Positions 377 through 59,976 of a stretch of DNA of 64,000 nt are shown one piece after another. Both the position numbers and the translations under genes were made by a program. How positions within the stretch are numbered: the first letter of the stretch is position 1; each line of letters starts with the position of its first letter. Source of the stretch: Octopus vulgaris (lineage: Eukaryota); contig OX597833.1 in NCBI GenBank assembly GCA_951406725.2, positions 56,730,001 to 56,794,000 of the forward strand. The letters are read 5' to 3'. The notes beneath the pieces are model-generated. The model had not been told where the DNA came from. It was given only the letters and a program-made list of their open reading frames with translations, and did not search any database.

Positions 377-1774
377 ATAGTACAATATCTATTACAACAT
401 ATGATTTCATATCAAGAAACTTGTAAAATAAAATAAAACATATCTTTCAGAAGTTCACCAAAACTATACATTCATTCACAACATAGTATAATATTTTTTT
501 AATAAGACATTCTATTACTAGAAGTAACATAATTTCCAACCAAAACATAATGAACAGAGAAATTCACATTATCCAAAAAAAAAAAAATAAATAATAATAA
601 TAAATGAAAAACTGAACTTAATTGGTAAGCAGTGCTGCAATTTTAGCTATGTTAACTGAGTAATTGCTAATTATCGAGAAAATAATCAGTTTGGATTCTG
701 TGAGAAAACATTGAAACAAAAGTGTTACATTTTACATGGTTTGATATGAATATGAGAGAGAAATTGTTTAAAAGTATTTAATACTACTGGAGAAATCTAA
801 CACAGACTATAAAAGTTGACTGAGGATTGTAAAATTACATTTAAAAAAATAATGGAAAGCTATATTTCAATTCATATTTTTAAACCTTAAAGAAACCAGT
901 TTATTTATATGTCTTTGGTGAAAAAATCCTATATAAACAATAAAACTAAAATTCATGTGCAATGAAAACAAATTTGAGTTTTGGAGTAATCCTTTAGTTA
1001 GTTCACTGGTATGTACTTGTGAATTAATATAAGTCATCACATTCCTTGATACATTCTCATTACTCCTCTTGTTCCCCATTCTCTCTTCACTTTACTCTCT
1101 CTCTCTTTAGTTGTCTTGAAATCCACCCACCCACAACATAGCAGCATTATACCCAGGATAGAATTTTCCTTATAGCTACTGCAGCTGGACTTGCCTGCCC
1201 AGTATTGGCCAAGTCAGTTATGAACAAGCCTGCAGCCAATGTAGACAGTTCGTTTCATGAATCTTCACTTACATATCCAAGTCATGATGATATAAAATAA
1301 ATGAAAACAAATAATATAAGATCAAGTGCACACACCTCTCACACTGAATTTATATTTGGTTTTATTTTACCTTCCCTACTTTTATAACCTGTTCAGTATT
1401 TCAATCCAGTAAAATAAAAATAAAAACAATGATTAATAAAGATACTAATTGTTTCACTTCTTTTATTTTATAGTCATCACTTGAGATACAGTCTTTATAG
1501 TGTCTCCTTCATAGTGATGCAACTCCTTTAAGGGATGAAAATATTTAAGATATAAAAGAAACACTGAAAAATTATGTAAAGAGTGTAATAATCTTTAATA
1601 AATACAAATTCTAAAGCAGGATCTGTTTGATCTTTATTAATCCAAAATTTCATAATTAGATCTACTTTTATTGATGTACTGAGTACAAAATGCTTCCTTT
1701 TCAGCTTTTCACTAGCAAATTCCTTCCACTGGTCTTTCAGACATGGTACTGAGTGAAAATTATAATAAATTGAA

Positions 1775-5110: not shown

Positions 5111-5217
5111 ATAATCATGATAATAATCATCTACTGACCAAGTGTTAGTGAAAAATTACTTCTTAATCTTGTTTTAAAGCGAATTATCTGATTTGATTAA
5201 AGAATATTTTAAGATAC

Positions 5218-5630
5218 TCTTTTACTCTTTACTCTTTTACTTGTTTCAGTCATTTGACTGTGGCCATGCTGGAGCACCGCCTTTAGTCGAGCAAATCGAC
5301 CCCGGGACTTATTCTTTGTAAGCCCAGTACTTATTCTATCGGTCTCTTTTGCCGAACCGCTAAGTTACGGAGACGTAAACACACCAGCATCGGTTGTCAA
5401 GCAATGCTAGGGGGACAAACACACATACACAAACACACACATATACACATATATATATACATATATACGACAGGCTTCTTTCAGTTTCCGTCTACCAAAT
5501 CCACTCACAAGGCATTGGTTGGCCCGGGGCTATAGCAGAAGACACTTGCCCAAGATGCCACGCAGTGGGACTGAACCTGGAACCATGTGGTTGGTTAGCA
5601 AGCTACTTACCACACAGCTACTCCTGCGCC
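5218..5630 (-). mobile_element. SINE family A, full length
   Basis: Reverse complement of 1775-2203; 8-bp TSD TAAGATAC at 5210-5217 and 5631-5638. Confidence 0.93.
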
Positions 5631-18004: not shown

Positions 18005-19112
18005 ATAGAGGTATCAAAAAGTTCCTGGACTAGTTCTGTAGCATGTCAACAGATGGCAGCACAGGCGCAGTGAAAGCTACCAGTGACATTCACGAGGCAG
18101 TGTACCGAGTGACATCACAGTGTTTACTTTGCAACTTGTGAAATTTGTGATCATGTGTATGCTGTAGTCTGCAATTTTGTTATGGACAGGAAGTTGGAGC
18201 AAAGAGCAAATGTGAAATTTTGCATTAAATTTGGGATCTCTGCTACAGAGACATTGAGCATGCTTTGGCAAGCTTACGGTAATGAAGGAATAGGATCGTT
18301 GGACAATCAACAATATTGCTGATGTTGTTGGTCTGTTGTATGGATCTGTGCAGGCAATCCTAATATCTGAATTGAACATGAGGCATGTCTCTGCCAAGTT
18401 TGTCCCCTGCCTGCTGACCACTGAGCAGAAAGAACATAACACTGGAGTCTGTCGGGATCTCCATCAGCGTGCCACTGATGACTCATCTTTCATGTCAAAG
18501 ATCATCACTGGTGATGAACGTTGGGTCGACAGGTACAACCTTGAGGCAACAATCGTTGCCCTTCATCTCCACAACCAAAGAAGGCACTGTTTTTTTCCAA
18601 CATCCACAATATTGTACATTAAGAATTTATTCCCCAGGGACAGACCATCAACCGAGAGTTCTACTACAACATTTTGAAGCATCTGAGGGAAGTGACTAGA
18701 TTTGAGCATCAGTGGAAGTGACTAGATTTGTAAAGTGCAAAGAATGGGATTCTTCACAACAAAAATGCACCCTGCTACCAAGTTTCTTGCTAAAAAACAA
18801 CATGGTACTGCTTCTACACCTGCCCTATTTGCCAGATTTAGCACCTGTGGACTTCCATCTCTTCCCCAAGATGAAAATGCAGCTTAAAGGTTGCCGTTTT
18901 AACACCATTGTTGAAATCCAGAGCAAATTGTCTCACTTACAGAAAATAACTTCCAGGCCAGATTCCAAAAGTGTCAGGAACATTGGGACCAATGCATTCC
19001 TGTGCAAGGTGACTATTTTGAAGGAGATGATGTTAAAACCTAGGTAAATAAGCTATTTTTTTTTATTAAACATAACTAGTCAGGGAACTCTTTGATACCT
19101 ACTTACCTTGTA
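18005..19112 (+). mobile_element. Mariner (DD34D-type) element with TIRs and internally deleted, frameshifted transposase
   Basis: TIR AGGTATCAAAAAGTTCCTGGACTAGTT (18009-18035) vs AACTAGTCAGGGAACTCTTTGATACCT (19074-19100); MDRKLEQRANVKFC, SAKFVPCLLT, ITGDERWV, HLPYLPDLAPVDFHLFPKMK. Confidence 0.93.
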
Positions 19113-28945: not shown

Positions 28946-29105
28946 GGCTGTGTGGTAAGTGGCTTGCTTATGAACCACATGGTTCCGGGTTCAGTCTCAC
29001 TGCGTGGCACCTTGGGCAAGTGTCTTCTACTATAGCCTCAGGTTGACCAAAGCCTAGTGAGTGGATTTGGTAGGCGGAAACTGAAAGAAGCCCGTCGCAT
29101 CTATG

Positions 29106-29167
<62 letters not shown>

Positions 29168-29384
29168 TGTGTCTGTGTTTGTCCCCCCAACATCGCTTGA
29201 CAACCAATGCTGGTGTGTTTATGTACCCCGTAACTTAGCAGTTCGGTAAAATAGACCGATGGAATAAGTACTAGGCTTACAAAGAATAAGTCCTGGGGTC
29301 AATTTGCTCGACTAAAGGCGGTGCTCCAGCATGCCCACAGTCAAATGACTGAAACAAGAAAAAGAGTAAAAAAAAAAAGAGTAA
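28946..29384 (+). mobile_element. SINE family A
   Basis: Head, CORE, (TG)n and tail all present. Confidence 0.92.
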
Positions 29385-30632: not shown

Positions 30633-31044
30633 TACTCTCTTTTACACTCTTTTACTTGTTTCAGTCATTTGACTGTGGCCATGCTGGAGCACCACCTTTA
30701 ATTGAGCAAATCAACCCCAGGACTTATTCTTTGTAAGCTTAGTACTTATTCTATCGGTCTCTTTTGCCGAACCACTAAGTTACGGGGATGTAAACACATC
30801 AGCATCGGTTGTCAAGCGATGTTGGAGGGACAAACACAGACATACAAACACACACACATACACATATATATATATATATATATACATATATACAATGGGC
30901 TTCTTTCAGTTTCCGTCTGCCAAATCCACTCACAAGGCTTTGATCAGCCCGAGGCTATAGTAGAAGACACTTGCCCAAGGTGTCACGCAGAAGGACTGAA
31001 CCCGGAACCATGCGGTTGGTAAGCAAGCTACTTACCACACAGCC
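30633..31044 (-). mobile_element. SINE family A
   Basis: Reverse complement of the family A consensus. Confidence 0.92.
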
Positions 31045-33397: not shown

Positions 33398-33548
33398 AGG
33401 CACAGGCATGGCTGTATAATAAGAAGCTTGCTTTCTGACCACACAGCTTTGGGTTCAGTCCTATTGCATTGTACCTTGGGCAAATGTCTTCTGCTATAGA
33501 CTCTAGTCAACCAAAGACTTGTGAGCACATTTGATAGATGGAAACTGA

Positions 33549-33620
<72 letters not shown>

Positions 33621-33828
33621 TGTCCCCCACCATTGCTTGACAACTGGTGTTAGTGTGTTTACATCCTCATAACTTAGCAGTTTGGTAAAAGAGACCGATA
33701 GAATAAGGGTCAGGCTTTAAAAAAAATTATTACTACTGGGGTTGATTCATTTGGTTAAAAGTTCTTCAAGGCTGTGTCCCAACATGGCCACAGTCTAATA
33801 ACTGAAACAAGTAAAAGATAAAAAGATA
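33398..33828 (+). mobile_element. Older SINE family A copy
   Basis: Head, CORE, (GT)n and tail. Confidence 0.87.
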
Positions 33829-33920: not shown

Positions 33921-34312
33921 GGCGCAGGAGTGGCTGTATGGTAAGTAGCTTGCTAACCAACCACATAGTTCCGGGTTCAGTCCCACTGCGTGGCATCTTG
34001 GGCAAGTGTCTTCTGCTATAGCCCAGGGCTGACCAATGCCTTGTGAGTGGATTTGGTAGACGGAAACTGAAAGAAGCCTGTCGTATATATGTATGTGTGT
34101 GTGTTTGTGTGTCTGTGTTTGTCCCCCTAGCATTGCTTCACAACCGATGCTGGTGTGTTTACGTCCCCGTAACTTAGCGGTTCGGCAAAAGAGACCGATA
34201 GAATAAGTACTGGGCTTACAAAGAATAAGTCCCGGGGTTGATTTGCTCGACTAAAGGCGGTGCTCCAGCATGGCCACAGTCAAATGACTGAAACAAGTAA
34301 AAGAGTAAAAGA
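33921..34312 (+). mobile_element. SINE family A, full length, young
   Basis: Near-identical to 1775-2203. Confidence 0.93.
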
Positions 34313-35108: not shown

Positions 35109-36073
35109 GCAATTGTAAAGTTTTTTGAATTATTAATCTGCATATTAAAATCAATGTCATGTAAAAAAATGTTTCACTTAAGATATTGTTTTATAAAACC
35201 ATTTCAAACACTTTTTTCTATTAACACAATATGCCAAACAGAATATTTAAAAAATACAACTGTTTTAGTTTAAAGAATGTATTAAAAGCAGACCTAGTGA
35301 AATATTTTATAGATAGCATGAATTAAAAATAAAGTTTTCATTGCTGTCTTAAAGATACTTCAAATAGCATTAAGTTTTGAGAAAGCAATGATGTCTAAAA
35401 GATGTATCGAGAGAAACTAAAAGAAAAATATTTTCAAATAGTGGAATAAATTTGAAAAAGGCAAATGGGTAGCAATGTAACATACCAAAATTATAAAAAT
35501 TTAAATGTGAACTGACATTTTTTAAAGCAAAAGTGGATATTAATAAATAAAGGTCAGTCACAATCGATACTCCTGCATCTGATTTCTGATTTTGATGCAC
35601 AGATCTTTCTAGATAAAGTAGTTCAAAAAAGTATGTTGTGAATGAAATAGCATTTTTTCACCAAATAATAATTCCAGTATTAGGAACTTAGTTTTTAATT
35701 TACTGTTTCCCTTCTTACATAGGGACTTCCTTACTTAAATTATTACTTTTCTTGTCAGTTTAATTTCTTCCCTACCACCAACCGCTAAAACATATGTAGA
35801 ATATGTTGCCAACTCAACTCCAATAAGCAAAAGCATTTGTCTTTTAGTACAGAATACAATGGCTGTCATATTATCACCGTATAGTCACTATTCCAACACC
35901 AGCATTGTACTTTTTATTATTTAACTGCAAAATTTATTAATGATTATTCTATTTTTAGATTACTGATAACTTTATAATAATGGAGATGTACTTGCATAGC
36001 GAGTGACTTAATCTGAGATCGTGTGTAGGAACGAAAACAATTGCAGCGTGGAAGGTGTTTATAAGCCATTTAA

Positions 36074-36293
36074 CCCTTTAGTGTTCAGATTACTCTGTTA
36101 AATGTAATACTTTTTCACTCAAATTATTTTGAATTAATCATGCATTATCTTATAGCTTTGAAGTTTCAATGATGTGATTGGTTATTTTTAGAATGACATT
36201 GTGGGTTAGGTGTGAGAGGCTAGATATGGCCAGTTTGAATATAAAATATGTGGAATATCTGGGCCAGATATGGCCGGTTTAAACGCTAAAGGG
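36074..36293. mobile_element. TTAA piggyBac-type MITE
   Basis: TTAA|CCCTTTAGTGTT ... AACGCTAAAGGG|TTAA; second copy at 52664-52893. Confidence 0.9.
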
Positions 36294-36342
36294 TTAAGAA
36301 ACACACAAAAGCCGTTCGATTCACTTCAACATATAAGTTTAA

Positions 36343-36393
36343 TTTGTCAAAATATTTTCCTCGCTTTGAGACCGCGACCTGTTCACTGACAAA
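36343..36393 (-). ncRNA. Minimal type-I hammerhead-like motif with G3-C8 core variant
   Basis: Minus strand TTTGTCA-GTGAACA-G-GTCGC-ggtctcaaa-GCGAG-GAAA-ATAT-TT-TGACAAA: 7-bp stem I, palindromic AATATT stem III. Confidence 0.65.
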
Positions 36394-37079
36394 GCTTCAT
36401 GCTGTAAAGCTTCGTGTTGTTTATAATAATGTTATTTCTTTTAAGAATTTGTTTTAACCTTACTTCATAGCAAGAGAATCCATTTTCTTTGACCGCACAA
36501 TCCATAGTTGCTTTATAAGCACTTATTGTGCAAACAAAGCCTGCTACATTTGCTGGTCTCTTTGCTTTCAACTCTATTCTGTGCAAGCACACACAATGAC
36601 AACAACATGTAGTATTTATATAGTGCTCCACAGGTCATCCTAAAACATTGGAGATTCAACATGGTCCCTATCCTTATGGAATTTTAAAATCTTTCTCTGT
36701 GCCTAAACTGGAAGCATAAAACAGTGTGCTTCATACACAAGAAAGAAACTTCTCAATTTTATCAACTATCAACCTTTAGATCTTTTCATCCTGCTACCAT
36801 TGCAGAATTTATTATAAACAATTACTTAATTTTTGTTTTTCCTTTTCTGTGATTCCTACAATGGGTTCTACAGATTTGACACATGAAATGACAGTTCTTG
36901 TCACCAAAGAGAGGTGAAAGTGATTCAACATGAAAAATAACTATTTTCATCACTTTGGAAACAGTGGAAGTATAATAGATGGTTTAGCAGTTGGCAAGAT
37001 TAGAATTATTTGCTTCTCAGATAAAAGATAAAAATCATGTTCCATGATTGATACTTATTTCATTGATCTATGATAAGTA

Positions 37080-43425: not shown

Positions 43426-43534
43426 TTGTTATCAGCAGGCATGGAAATGGTAATTCAAGATGTTGCTGAATGATTCTCATTCAGTGCAGGGTAGAGAGAG
43501 ATAATGAATCTTATGTAAATTCAACAGGGGGGAC

Positions 43535-43937
43535 AAGCTACTGGAAACCTGGACGTTATCAAAGAAGCTTGAGAGGTGGTTGGATGGAACCTACACTCGC
43601 CTCCTTATGAGAGCTCAAAATCTTTTCTGGAAGCGTCATCCAACCAAAATGCAAATATATGGGAAACTGCCACCTGTGTCATCTCTTGTGAAAGGTAGGA
43701 GAGTCCAGTTTGCTGGACATTGTTACAGGGCTGAAAACGAGGCAATATCTACTCTTCTCCTCTGGAAGCCATCTACTCGCAACACCAGAGGGCGCACACT
43801 CTCCTACCCTGATGTAATCTCCAGGGATACAGGCATCCAACAACAGGACCTCTGTAATGCTATGATGGATCGTGAAGTCTGGTGTAGCATGGTAAATTCC
43901 ATTGTCTCGACCACGGTCGAACAATGATGATGATGAT
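43535..43937 (+). mobile_element. LINE ORF C-terminus and (TGA)n tail (RTE-related)
   Basis: ETWTLSKKLERWLDGTYTRLLMRAQN..RRVQFAGHCYRAE..LLLWKP..AMMDREVW; open frame ending in the tail. Confidence 0.88.
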
Positions 43938-52568: not shown

Positions 52569-52663
52569 AAAAATTCCCCAGGCAAAAATGTGACAACACT
52601 AGTTTCATACATTCCACACAATTGCTCACCAGTCATTTAGGTTTAACGTTAGTACCTGCTTAA

Positions 52664-52893
52664 CCCTTTAGTGTTTAAATTATTCTGTTAAATGTAATAC
52701 TTCTTCATTCAAATTCATCATCATCAACTTGAATTAATCATGCATTATCTTCTAGCTTTGAGGTTTCAATAATGTCACTATTTATTTTTAGAGTGTCAAT
52801 GTAGGGTAGGTGTGAAAGGCTAGATATTGCCAGTTTGAATATAAAACATGTAGAATATTTGAGCCGGATATGGCCGGTTTAAACACTAAAGGG
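52664..52893. mobile_element. TTAA piggyBac-type MITE
   Basis: Perfect 16-bp TIR CCCTTTAGTGTTTAAA/TTTAAACACTAAAGGG with TTAA on both sides. Confidence 0.92.
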
Positions 52894-55499
52894 TTAAAGC
52901 ATACTTTTAGTAAAATTCATATTGTTTCACCCCTTCATTTCCCTCATCCATAATATTCAGATTGGGCATTGGCTGCAGAGATTTCATCAGTGTGTCAAAG
53001 CCTACAAATCTTATTGTGCTGCCTCACACCTTTAAAATAAGAAAATCTTAATTATCAAAGCTTAACCTAATATTTTTGGATCAACTGCAAATGACATTTA
53101 TGCTACAGTTGTAACAAACATTGTACCTGACATATTTAAACAACTTTAAGACACAAAGGGAGAACATTGATATTCTCCACAAAACTATTTGTTTTTATTG
53201 TAATAAATATTGTTAAAAAATTTAAAATTTAAATTGTAGACCTCACATAAGTGTTCCATTTTTTTTTATAAGAATTCAGTTGCTACACTGATTGCCATAA
53301 GCATCTATGTAGCAGCTCAACTTTTTTCTAATTTCAATTTAGAATTTATGGCCACCAAAAAAAGAAAAAAAAAATTGATAATTACTAAAGGCAGTTTTTT
53401 TTTTTTTTTGTATCAGTTTACAAATGATTACTAAAGCAGATTTCAATACAAAATAACAAGAAACCAATAATCTGCTGTATTGTAATTAAATAACTAAAAT
53501 ACCTATTTATTTCTATAAATGAACCTTGTTACATCCTAGGTGTATCGAATTAATCATATGGTAAGAGGCTTATTGATGTATTGCCAGACTTGAGTACTTC
53601 AAAGAACAGGCACTGAGTCCTGTCTGTAAAACTACTCTCTCATAGATTCAAATAGTAAAGTTGATTTTTCTGAGACTTTTCGCAATTATGGAATCCATTT
53701 TATTGGATTTAGGTCTGTTTTTCAAGAACCCTACATTGGCACTGATACAATAATCTTCCAGCACACAAACGGTTATCACACACATGGCTACTTAAAAAAC
53801 AATAATATTTCCTTAATAACTAGTGAATATATATCATGCAACTTGAGACATAAGCCAAAAACCTGTCTGAAACTAATTACTTTAGAATTATGTTCCTTGT
53901 AAGGTTTTAACTAGGGAAGCCTACAAAATAGGATATGAACACCTCTTGAACCAAATCAAAAAAAGCCAGATTTTTATTTGCATATACAGTAATATTACTT
54001 CAATTTCATCCTTCATGTTACAACCCGAATGTCAAAACTTTACATTTCCAACTCCAATATCAGTAAAATAAATAAATAACCCACAGACGAATACCTATGA
54101 TTAAAAATTGTGAAAGAATTTTTAATATGAATAGTAAAATATTGATTGACTTATATGACAATGCTAAATCAGAAGCTAAGAAAATCAATATCTATCTTTT
54201 AGAAGATCTAACTCTGATGACCAATACTATATACTTTTTCTAAACTAGTAATAGTATTGCTTTTACTATTATTCCCACTTACTCTCCAGCTCCCCTCCCT
54301 TCCTATTGTCATTAAAATCACCTAGTTAGAGGAAAGAGTCTAACATATGTCAAGACTATAGAAAATCTATCTTTGTAATTTCAACAGCACTTCTTTTGTA
54401 AATATTTTACATTGTGTGATAAATGAAATCCAGCTGCACTAAATATACCATCATTGTATTACTGCTTCTGTTCTGAGTTATTTTGGTAACTTAAATATTC
54501 TGAAATCATGCTTTTTTCCTAACAACTTCACTCAATTATTTCAATCTGATTTTGTATAAAACTGTATTCTAGCAACCAGCCAGTTCTTAGTTTCTTTGGT
54601 TTTATGAAATTTTAATCTCACAGGAACAAAGACATTTCAAGACATTTGCCAAATCAAAGAATATAATTTTTCCTATCACTTCCCCCAAAATGTTCAAAAG
54701 ACATCATAAACTGATTATTGTCTACACTGATTTTTTCAAGAAAAGTTTGATCTCTGATCAGAAATATTAGACAATTGTCTGCACAGAATAATACATTTAC
54801 AACTTTTCTATTCTGTCATATTGCATCATAGAAGCCAATAACTTAAAAATCATAGCGTCATATGTTAAACCTCTGCAGTCTGATCCGGTATGAACTACAT
54901 CCTAATCTAAATATTCATATCTAGATCAAAATCTAACAAATATTCGTTTTGATCAACATAAAATTTAGATTAATTGCCTTACTTTCTTAATACATGCCAA
55001 CTAACTCTTAATTATTCTTATCTGATGAATGTGATATAAAGCAAGAGACAAAGACACAGTGAGCCAAACCTTCAATGCTTGGTTTGAAGTCAATTTTATT
55101 TCACTTTTGTTACTATTGTCTCTAATTTTGTGTCTCATAAAAAAAACATAAAGACGGTAATTCTTAATCAGTTTAATATCTTTAAGAATATCCAAAAGAA
55201 ATAGAAAGAAAAATTGAAACAAATAGATAAGAAAATATGTGAATTTAAAAGTTTCATGAATTATTACGAAATATATGATGTACATCTGTGACATCTTCTC
55301 CATCAAAAGTTTAACTCTGCATGAATCAGTAAAAGATGAAAGTTTTTTTACCTTATCTTTTAACAAAATTATAGGGTATCATTATGATGAAAAGTTGGGA
55401 AGTTTAACTGGTAAATGCCTTTGACTAGAATTCCAGAAATACAAATAGTTTTATCACTTTAGATCTTAAATGGTAATGGTGGAATTTGTTGTAGTTACG

Positions 55500-59552: not shown

Positions 59553-59976
59553 CTCTTTTACTCTTTTACTTGTTTCAGTCATTTGACTGTGGCCATGCTG
59601 GAGCACCGCCTTTAGTCAGCAAATCGACCCCGGGACTTATTCTTTGTAAGCCCAGTACTTATTCTATTGGTCTCTTTTGCCGAACCGCTAAGTGACGGGG
59701 ACGTAAACACACCAGCATTGGTTGTCAAGCAATGCTAAGGGGACAAACACAGACACACAAACATATACACACACACAAACATATACACACACACATATAT
59801 ATATACATATATACGACAGGCTTCTTTCAGTTTCCATCTACCAAATCCACTCACAAGGCATTGGTCGGCCCGGGGCTATAGCAGAAGACACTTGCCCAAG
59901 ATGCCACGCAGTGGGACTGAACCCGGAACCATGTGGTTGGTTAGCAAGCTACTTACCACACAGCCACTCCTGAGCC
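59553..59976 (-). mobile_element. SINE family A, full length
   Basis: Reverse complement of the family A consensus. Confidence 0.93.

Follow-up and report, generated by a model that had tools for sequence, protein, structure and literature searches.

Can a hammerhead ribozyme whose tertiary pair between positions 3 and 8 reads G3-C8 in place of C3-G8 be the regular form of a mobile element, or is such a core the damage of a single copy? A short repeat of Octopus vulgaris (GenBank assembly GCA_951406725.2, contig OX597833.1) raises this question, the C3-G8 tertiary pair being part of the textbook picture of how the hammerhead active site is built. The window, i.e., the whole stretch of DNA that we analysed, comprises 64,000 nucleotides (forward-strand positions 56,730,001 to 56,794,000 of the contig), and a preliminary description made from its letters had placed a retroposon carrying a hammerhead with a swapped core at window positions 35971..36431. 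We consider it probable that this element is a copy, interrupted by a miniature inverted-repeat transposable element (MITE), of a high-copy repeat, likely consisting of the 5′ leader and the first 29 codons of an octopus Penelope-like retroelement, and that it carries a type I hammerhead in which the G3-C8 swap is family-wide and for which slow, dimer- or protein-dependent cleavage is predicted.

The hammerhead lies on the minus strand, running from 36393 to 36343; the strand had been left unstated before. Each of the named parts, i.e., a perfect 7-bp stem I, the GUGAACA core, stem II, GAAA, a palindromic AAUAUU and a UUU triplet, could be located there. In folding predictions, the RNA adopts a three-way junction with its ends in stem I, as in type I hammerheads (stem I of 7 bp; family stem II of 5 bp); the minimum-energy fold of the motif has stems I and II formed, with pair probabilities of 0.94-1.0 in both stems apart from the outer one or two pairs. 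The core letters U4, G5, A6, A9, G12, A13, A14, A15.1, U16.1 and H17 occur in the window copy as well as in the family-majority letters. Positions 3 and 8 can form a Watson-Crick pair, G3-C8 being the majority in all four sequencing runs considered below, but the literal C3 and G8 of the Rfam and descriptor consensus are missing. As far as modelling goes, the motif thus behaves like the hammerheads in the pseudo-long terminal repeats (pLTRs) of Penelope elements in every structural respect save these two letters, and cleavage is predicted. It should be slow, since stem III is unable to close in the monomer, the six-base palindrome, taken as a duplex by itself, yields only -0.2 kcal/mol, and a G3.U17 wobble is added in the predicted fold. 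In sum, G3-C8 RNA is predicted to cleave itself slowly, yet to work.

Within the same RNA, GCUUUG (36395-36390, minus strand), upstream of and inside stem I, can pair with CAAAGC (36368-36363) in loop II and stem II. This alternative pairing survives the common loop variant as G.U, and both a switch and chance are possible.

That letters of a repeat fell into a hammerhead-like pattern by chance is hardly credible. In 150 dinucleotide-shuffled versions of the window, a descriptor demanding a Watson-Crick 3-8 pair, a stem I of at least 7 bp and a palindromic stem III found no match (one of 150 with the requirement for stem I alone), and among 120 viral control loci that have just the letters GUGANCA...GAAAAUAUUU, none shows a stem I of at least 5 bp. 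With stem I relaxed to at least 5 bp, 8 of 150 shuffles match, and the real window has four matches, of which three are AT-rich and unconvincing; for loose descriptors, shuffling the whole window thus gives too low an estimate of chance. On the side of chance stand the 66-nt stretch, which is no more stable than its shuffles (z -0.55), and the Rfam search of the window, which returned nothing at gathering level and, with matches up to E ≤ 10 included, five unrelated chance matches and no hammerhead. The latter agrees with the earlier expectation that standard CUGANGA-type searches overlook this motif. Against chance, it is precisely the predicted G10.1-C11.1 pair that the family-majority letter restores, and the family data, to which we now turn, largely refute it.

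The family was followed in contigs of four public runs (X1, X2, X7 and X9, of 24) from four studies with three organism labels; X1 may come from the source of the window itself. Contigs were compared with positions 35880-36520 at ≥ 80% identity and variants were counted from a depth share of 8%; the family is therefore read from contig depth and not from a copy-by-copy alignment, the motif being single in the window. A C3 allele of at least 8% occurs in none of the four runs, the sole C>G place per run being 36360 (a recount from per-run change totals). An A8 allele is absent from X2, X7 and X9, in which all G>T places are assigned, and X1 has one unplaced G>T row. In every run a single G>C row is unplaced, so that a minor allele with G8 is conceivable; it would be without a C3 partner. 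G3-C8 is the state of the family and not damage of the window copy. The core is restricted among copies, free variation having been named as the outcome that would speak against a compensatory change, and the compensatory G3-C8 change is supported as the family majority in a type I architecture.

At 36360 (position 11.1), where the window copy has a G, the other letter, C11.1, holds 87, 94, 86 and 94% of the depth in the four runs. The consensus stem II GUCGC/GCGAC that had been predicted is thus found as the family majority, and the basal G.G of stem II, which had been taken for damage of this copy, is just that; in a folding comparison, C11.1 restores stem II from -10.8 to -13.8 kcal/mol. 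The other variable sites listed near the motif are 36368 in loop II (0.3-25%) and 36337 and 36333, 3′ of stem I. By a rough equal-rate sum, two random changes among 13 core positions would land on 3 and 8 and re-pair in about one of 230 cases. That the changes are confined to positions 3 and 8, and that these re-paired, is unlikely under decay and speaks for the tertiary pair being under selection.

Summed contig depth over the motif reaches 2.9, 1.5, 2.8 and 1.2 million (X1, X2, X7 and X9) against 12-56 in the flanks, i.e., body/flank ratios of 22,000-124,000, lower near the edges; this sum is no copy number and is inflated by overlapping contigs, and it indicates, roughly, a family of the order of 10^4 copies. 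By interpolation in a partial bin, the left family edge lies at about 35986 in each of the four runs, beside the left direct repeat. On the hammerhead side, only 1.5-6% of the body depth is left at 36399, and single-copy level holds from 36408. Most copies therefore stop, or become different, at about the base with which stem I begins, and the common family length is about 185-190 bp. Dividing the depth upstream of the cut site by that downstream gives 0.92, 0.54, 0.98 and 1.08. Copies likely stem from uncut RNA, since the whole hammerhead, 5′ of its own cut site, is retained in them and depth does not drop in three of the four runs. An opposite-strand joint at 36393 occurs in all four runs, along with two more joints there of unstated kind (among the joints listed), and would be in keeping with the inverted, truncated copies that Penelope-like elements typically leave (PMC8557442).

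Size and copy number invite comparison with the monomers of non-LTR retrozymes (LTR, long terminal repeat), tandem units of 170-400 nt with a type I hammerhead that give circular RNA and are reverse transcribed in trans. The octopus repeat shares with them a short, high-copy, non-coding-sized unit, a type I hammerhead whose stem III is palindromic and a tie to Penelope-like elements, and the accessible parts of PMC7229834 and 10.64898/2026.07.22.740005 report solo monomers and propose an origin from pLTRs. Retrozymes are tandem, however, and have a canonical core in the families described (PMC7229834, as far as accessible), whereas the octopus unit is not seen in tandem: the window copy is single and has a target duplication, and no head-to-tail joint of hammerhead end to open reading frame (ORF) end is found among the joints listed. 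Moreover, its 3′ part begins a longer ORF that goes on in two species. We regard a retrozyme monomer as decidedly improbable.

This ORF starts at an ATG (36069-36067, minus strand) 56 nt past the predicted cut site once the MITE is left out, and runs for 29 codons to the element end. Its 41-residue translation matched one protein among 5.8 billion clusters, a gene model of Octopus sinensis (P0001, LOC115227545; E 1.3e-8), and one among 1.84 billion representatives, a model of Octopus bimaculoides (P0002; E 6e-4). P0001, P0002 and the element ORF have their first methionine in common. Within the element, 27/29 residues are identical to P0001, and past its end 1/7, while P0001 and P0002 go on together past the element (about 145 aligned codons, the element included, at 78% identity). 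Where the element ends, at codon 29, both gene models run on, which shows the short element to be the first part of a longer coding unit. This unit is likely Penelope-like, judging from its geometry and from a GxKF-like stretch of P0001. The hammerhead stands near the ORF start, the insertion stops before ~100 nt of the ORF are passed, and the motif has, as Penelope-like hammerheads do, the additional base 9.1 and the pair G10.1-C11.1 together with a stem III that is palindromic; residues ~196-218 of P0001 resemble, by our own reading, the GxKF/Y motif of PMC8557442, one residue short. The low-confidence structure model (AlphaFold pLDDT 47) has a long N-terminal helix as in PAc, the Poseidon-clade Penelope-like element of Anolis carolinensis, and is too weak to use.

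From about residue 230-243, P0001 turns into methyltransferase sequence, which we take to resemble a protein arginine methyltransferase. The joining of the ORF start to a methyltransferase would be either an annotation chimera or a transposon-gene fusion transcript.

Several points tell against the favoured reading. P0001 is a chimeric-looking gene model with terminal methyltransferase exons, and its middle may be spliced together. A homologue of the ORF with a reverse transcriptase (RT) or GIY-YIG domain was found in 0 of 563 and 0 of 8000 candidates, a Pfam and NCBIfam search of the N-terminal part gave no RT or GIY-YIG link, and Atlas, PDB and viral contigs yielded no RT-bearing parent protein. 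No canonical C3-G8 sister family was seen, and the ancestral C3-G8 state is assumed. Variants, joints and loose ends are known only as listed and from contigs of ≥ 80% identity; most copies could run past 36393 into common sequence that differs from the window's; and in X2 the depth upstream of the cut site is 46% lower. The depth-based family size carries the limits stated with it.

The missing RT link would suit a SINE-like (short interspersed element-like) or other non-Penelope repeat, mobilised for instance by an RTE or Dong/R4 long interspersed element (LINE) as in the hammerhead SINEs of schistosomes, with the gene models merely reading through it. Two sharp ends and a 12-bp duplication would suit it as well, target duplications of Naiad and Chlamys being often not discernible (accessible part of PMC8557442). 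Nevertheless, no family-wide tRNA-like head, A tail or tandem tail was seen, the two species' models align over and beyond the element, and the order of hammerhead, ATG and element end is like that of PAc. We find such a repeat very improbable.

PAc serves as a guide to how the Penelope-like reading would work. In that element, the hammerhead stands at the ORF start, reverse transcription begins at +111 to +118, where genomic insertions stop, the target is AT-rich with an ATT preference, and uncut RNA is the main template (PMC11167929). The octopus element is alike in having its hammerhead by the ORF start, ends within the first ~100 nt of the ORF, an AT-rich target and, inferred here, an uncut template. 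It differs in that PAc has its ATG at stem II and a C3-G8 core, whereas here the ATG follows the cut site at a distance, the end lies near +85, and the double change is natural. By analogy, stem I, or a point shortly before it, would mark the start of the parent RNA. The RT of the element itself, primed at a nick in AT-rich DNA, would begin about 85 nt inside the ORF and, by copying to the RNA 5′ end, could give uniform copies of ~185-190 bp with the 12-bp duplication on either side. Uncut RNA would be the template for most copies, and the slow G3-C8 core, the open stem III and the G3.U17 wobble would favour its copying. In the window copy, the MITE, a 15-bp junction duplication and the change of C11.1 to G would have come afterwards, and this copy is probably dead. 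The repeat would be a genomic example of the short uniform copies expected from internal RT initiation.

Tentatively, one may go further and propose that an octopus Penelope-like lineage fixed G3-C8 as an active, deliberately slow ribozyme, and that internal priming on the uncut leader mass-produced a SINE-like family of ~10^4 copies missed by standard searches; we hold this to be possible and well short of assured. Its natural opponent has the same element with the hammerhead as a dead relic, the swap having ended useful cleavage in the master while the fold was kept for protein binding or as an RT stop, or without selection. The copies hold the whole motif, so cleavage is not needed for making them, and hammerhead mutants of PAc leave insertion in vitro unchanged (PMC11167929). 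The G3.U17 wobble of the predicted fold would also agree with a relic, an engineered G3-C8 ribozyme being less active with C17 than with G17 (accessible part of PMC3884650), and where a family is young, the uniformity of its columns goes back to a single master and not to selection. We nonetheless judge a relic unlikely. Change is confined to exactly the two positions that pair, and they re-paired; the palindrome, G10.1-C11.1 and the remaining letters of the core were kept (the rough estimate of one in 230 given above), and the G3-C8 state is common to three organism labels in which subfamily allele frequencies differ. In PAc, moreover, each single mutant abolishes cleavage and the C3G/G8C double mutant partly restores it (PMC11167929). 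The G3-C8 family would offer a handle on whether Penelope-like hammerheads are selected to cut, transposition in vitro not needing them.

Among described systems, the pLTR hammerheads are one of the nearest. In the accessible part of PMC4209133, the Penelope-type consensus is given as CUGANGAH GNNNNN..NNNNNC GAAAN palindrome NUH, with the extra base 9.1 and G10.1-C11.1; these hammerheads have a palindromic stem III and a low activity as dimers (PMC4209133, Cervera and de la Pena 2014). They share with the octopus motif the type I layout, base 9.1, G10.1-C11.1, the dimer-needing palindrome and the occurrence as mostly single, dispersed motifs. The octopus motif differs in having G3-C8, i.e., two transversions, and not C3-G8 or U3-A8, a stem I of 7 bp and two apparently fixed ends. 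Natural covariation of the 3-8 pair is known as U3-A8, including a family with ~1,300 matches in Schistosoma mansoni (PMC4209133, as far as accessible); in the accessible part of Perreault et al. 2011 (PMC3088659), U3-A8 is the only 3-8 covariation among natural core variants, and G3-C8 is not among them. G at 9.1 is found in Hydra-clade elements (accessible part of the PMC8557442 supplement), among them Hydra-1_Obim, which is likewise Penelope-like, from octopus and provided with a hammerhead. In contrast, Hydra-1_Obim and Naiad_Obim/Ovul gave no match for two DNA and three peptide motifs, and have a canonical CUGA core near the 3′ end (PMC8557442, as far as accessible).

G3-C8 appears as an engineered variant in the accessible parts of PMC3884650 and PMC8495972. 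We found no natural G3-C8 hammerhead reported in the full-text literature searched, which for the most part leaves out subscription papers (Lunse et al. 2017 among them), and neither G3-C8 nor an octopus hammerhead family in the accessible parts of PMC7229834, PMC6765202, PMC6155905, PMC13282606 and 10.64898/2026.07.22.740005. Within that literature, the natural pair thus seems to be confined to this family, engineered G3-C8 showing partial rescue; the repeat or the variant may already stand in Repbase, Dfam, the Octopus vulgaris library or Lunse et al. 2017. Some 10^4 natural G3-C8 copies across related organisms would give natural support for that pair and would mean that CUGANGA descriptors and Rfam models overlook whole abundant families.

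Both swapped bases lie within CAG triplets (36388-36386 and 36381-36379, minus strand) that resemble 3′ splice sites: UUUGUCAG, with the boundary directly after G3, and C8-A9-G9.1, read as CAG/G. In the Penelope element of Drosophila virilis, the leader intron ends at helix I (accessible part of PMC4209133). That the swap was driven by a second code, with CAG as the 3′ splice site of a leader intron, is a speculation by analogy that we think improbable.

The architecture of the insertion agrees largely with what had been described. The direct repeat TTTATAATAATG is identical in 12 of 12 positions at 35971-35982 and 36420-36431, which bears out the flanking duplication; as a control, of up to 3000 pairs of stretches drawn at random from the window, 5 had a 12-mer in common. 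No empty target site is found among the joints listed. With the MITE removed, 213 bp (437-224) separate the direct repeats, so the net length proposed for a retroposon bounded by target-site duplications holds, but the family unit is ~185-190 bp long and is better read as leader plus ORF start. A free-standing retroposon is the weaker reading, since the element reads as the front of a longer, probably Penelope-like element. Likewise, the 15-bp tandem at one end is present (13/15) but is no family feature, depth being at single-copy level from 36408.

The MITE has 16-nt arms, 94% identical, at 36070-36085 and 36282-36297, with TTAA at both ends, and an independent copy, 84% identical and with different flanks, at 52660-52897. 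Copies that are free of it, i.e., that offer the empty site, show a joint of 36069 to 36294 in 22, 23, 18 and 2 contigs of the four runs. These MITE-skipping joints, together with loose ends reading across TTAA, identify the MITE as a later insertion, as had been thought. A 22-nt internal direct repeat (86%) at 36218-36239 and 36262-36283 lies in the MITE subterminal region.

One X7 contig (organism D) crosses the 5′ junction of the element (36348-36520) into the same flank, so the insertion appears to be common to organism labels A and D. The features of the element and of a further repeat in the window are listed in Table 1.

Table 1. Positions in the window of the element, its hammerhead, its insertion marks and one further repeat.
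Feature	Position	Strand	Remark
12-bp target-site duplication, hammerhead (5′) side	36420..36431	.	
15-bp tandem duplication at 5′ junction	36391..36420	.	13/15; private to window copy
Type I hammerhead motif	36343..36393	-	stem I 7 bp, GUGAACA core, extra G9.1, GAA, palindrome AAUAUU
Stem I 5′ arm UUUGUCA	36393-36387	-	
Core G3, U4, G5, A6, A7, C8, A9	G3 36386, C8 36381, A9 36380	-	
Swapped core pair G3/C8	36386 and 36381	-	majority state, four runs
Extra G (position 9.1)	36379	-	
Stem II 5′ arm GUCGC	36378-36374	-	
Stem II loop GGUCUCAAA	36373-36365	-	
Stem II 3′ arm GCGAG	36364-36360	-	basal G.G in window copy
Position 11.1	36360	-	G in window copy, C in 86-94% of family depth
G12 A13 A14	36359-36357	-	
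Palindrome A15.1-AUAU-U16.1 (stem III)	36356-36351	-	
U17	36350	-	predicted cut directly after
Stem I 3′ arm UGACAAA	36349-36343	-	
Leader between hammerhead and start codon	36298..36342	-	
TTAA-flanked MITE, 16-bp terminal inverted repeats	36070..36297	.	sits immediately before ATG
First 29 codons of longer ORF	35983..36069	-	family 3′ end near 35986-35983
12-bp target-site duplication, 3′ side	35971..35982	.	AT-rich; minus strand CATTATT...
~410-bp repeat, example copies	5215-5625, 28946-29384, 30637-31044, 33409-33825, 33926-34309, 59557-59971		

Searches with the family pattern, positions 3 and 8 left free, gave one match in the window and none in metagenome contigs or in viral contigs. 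Two matches in prokaryote genomes lie within flavobacterial gene frames, have no stem II and were set aside as chance. A pattern anchored on stem II found at least 119 loci in metagenomes, with about even 3/8 pairs (at least 37 CG, 29 GC, 27 GG and 26 CC) and no relative of the element among the matches listed. In the window itself, a match to the canonical CUGAGGA...GAAA descriptor at 814-870 (plus strand) has a weak, AU-rich stem II, folds no better than its shuffles (z +0.41) and is likely due to chance, and a tblastn match at 16201-16154 (E 0.08), between microsatellites and with stops around it, was rejected.

For the rest, the window is AT-rich animal DNA, full of repeats and without long ORFs. 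Pfam has no match for the frames 43508-43927 and 18294-18677 (both plus strand); the former presumably resembles an RTE-type LINE at its C-terminal end, the latter a fragment of a mariner transposase. At about 16566-16490 (minus strand), a tRNA-like head with A- and B-box-like letters leads into a SINE body. In the window as a whole, no tRNA is called by ARAGORN. An interspersed repeat of ~410 bp, probably a SINE, occurs at 1777-2189 and in at least seven more places with 74-95% identity.
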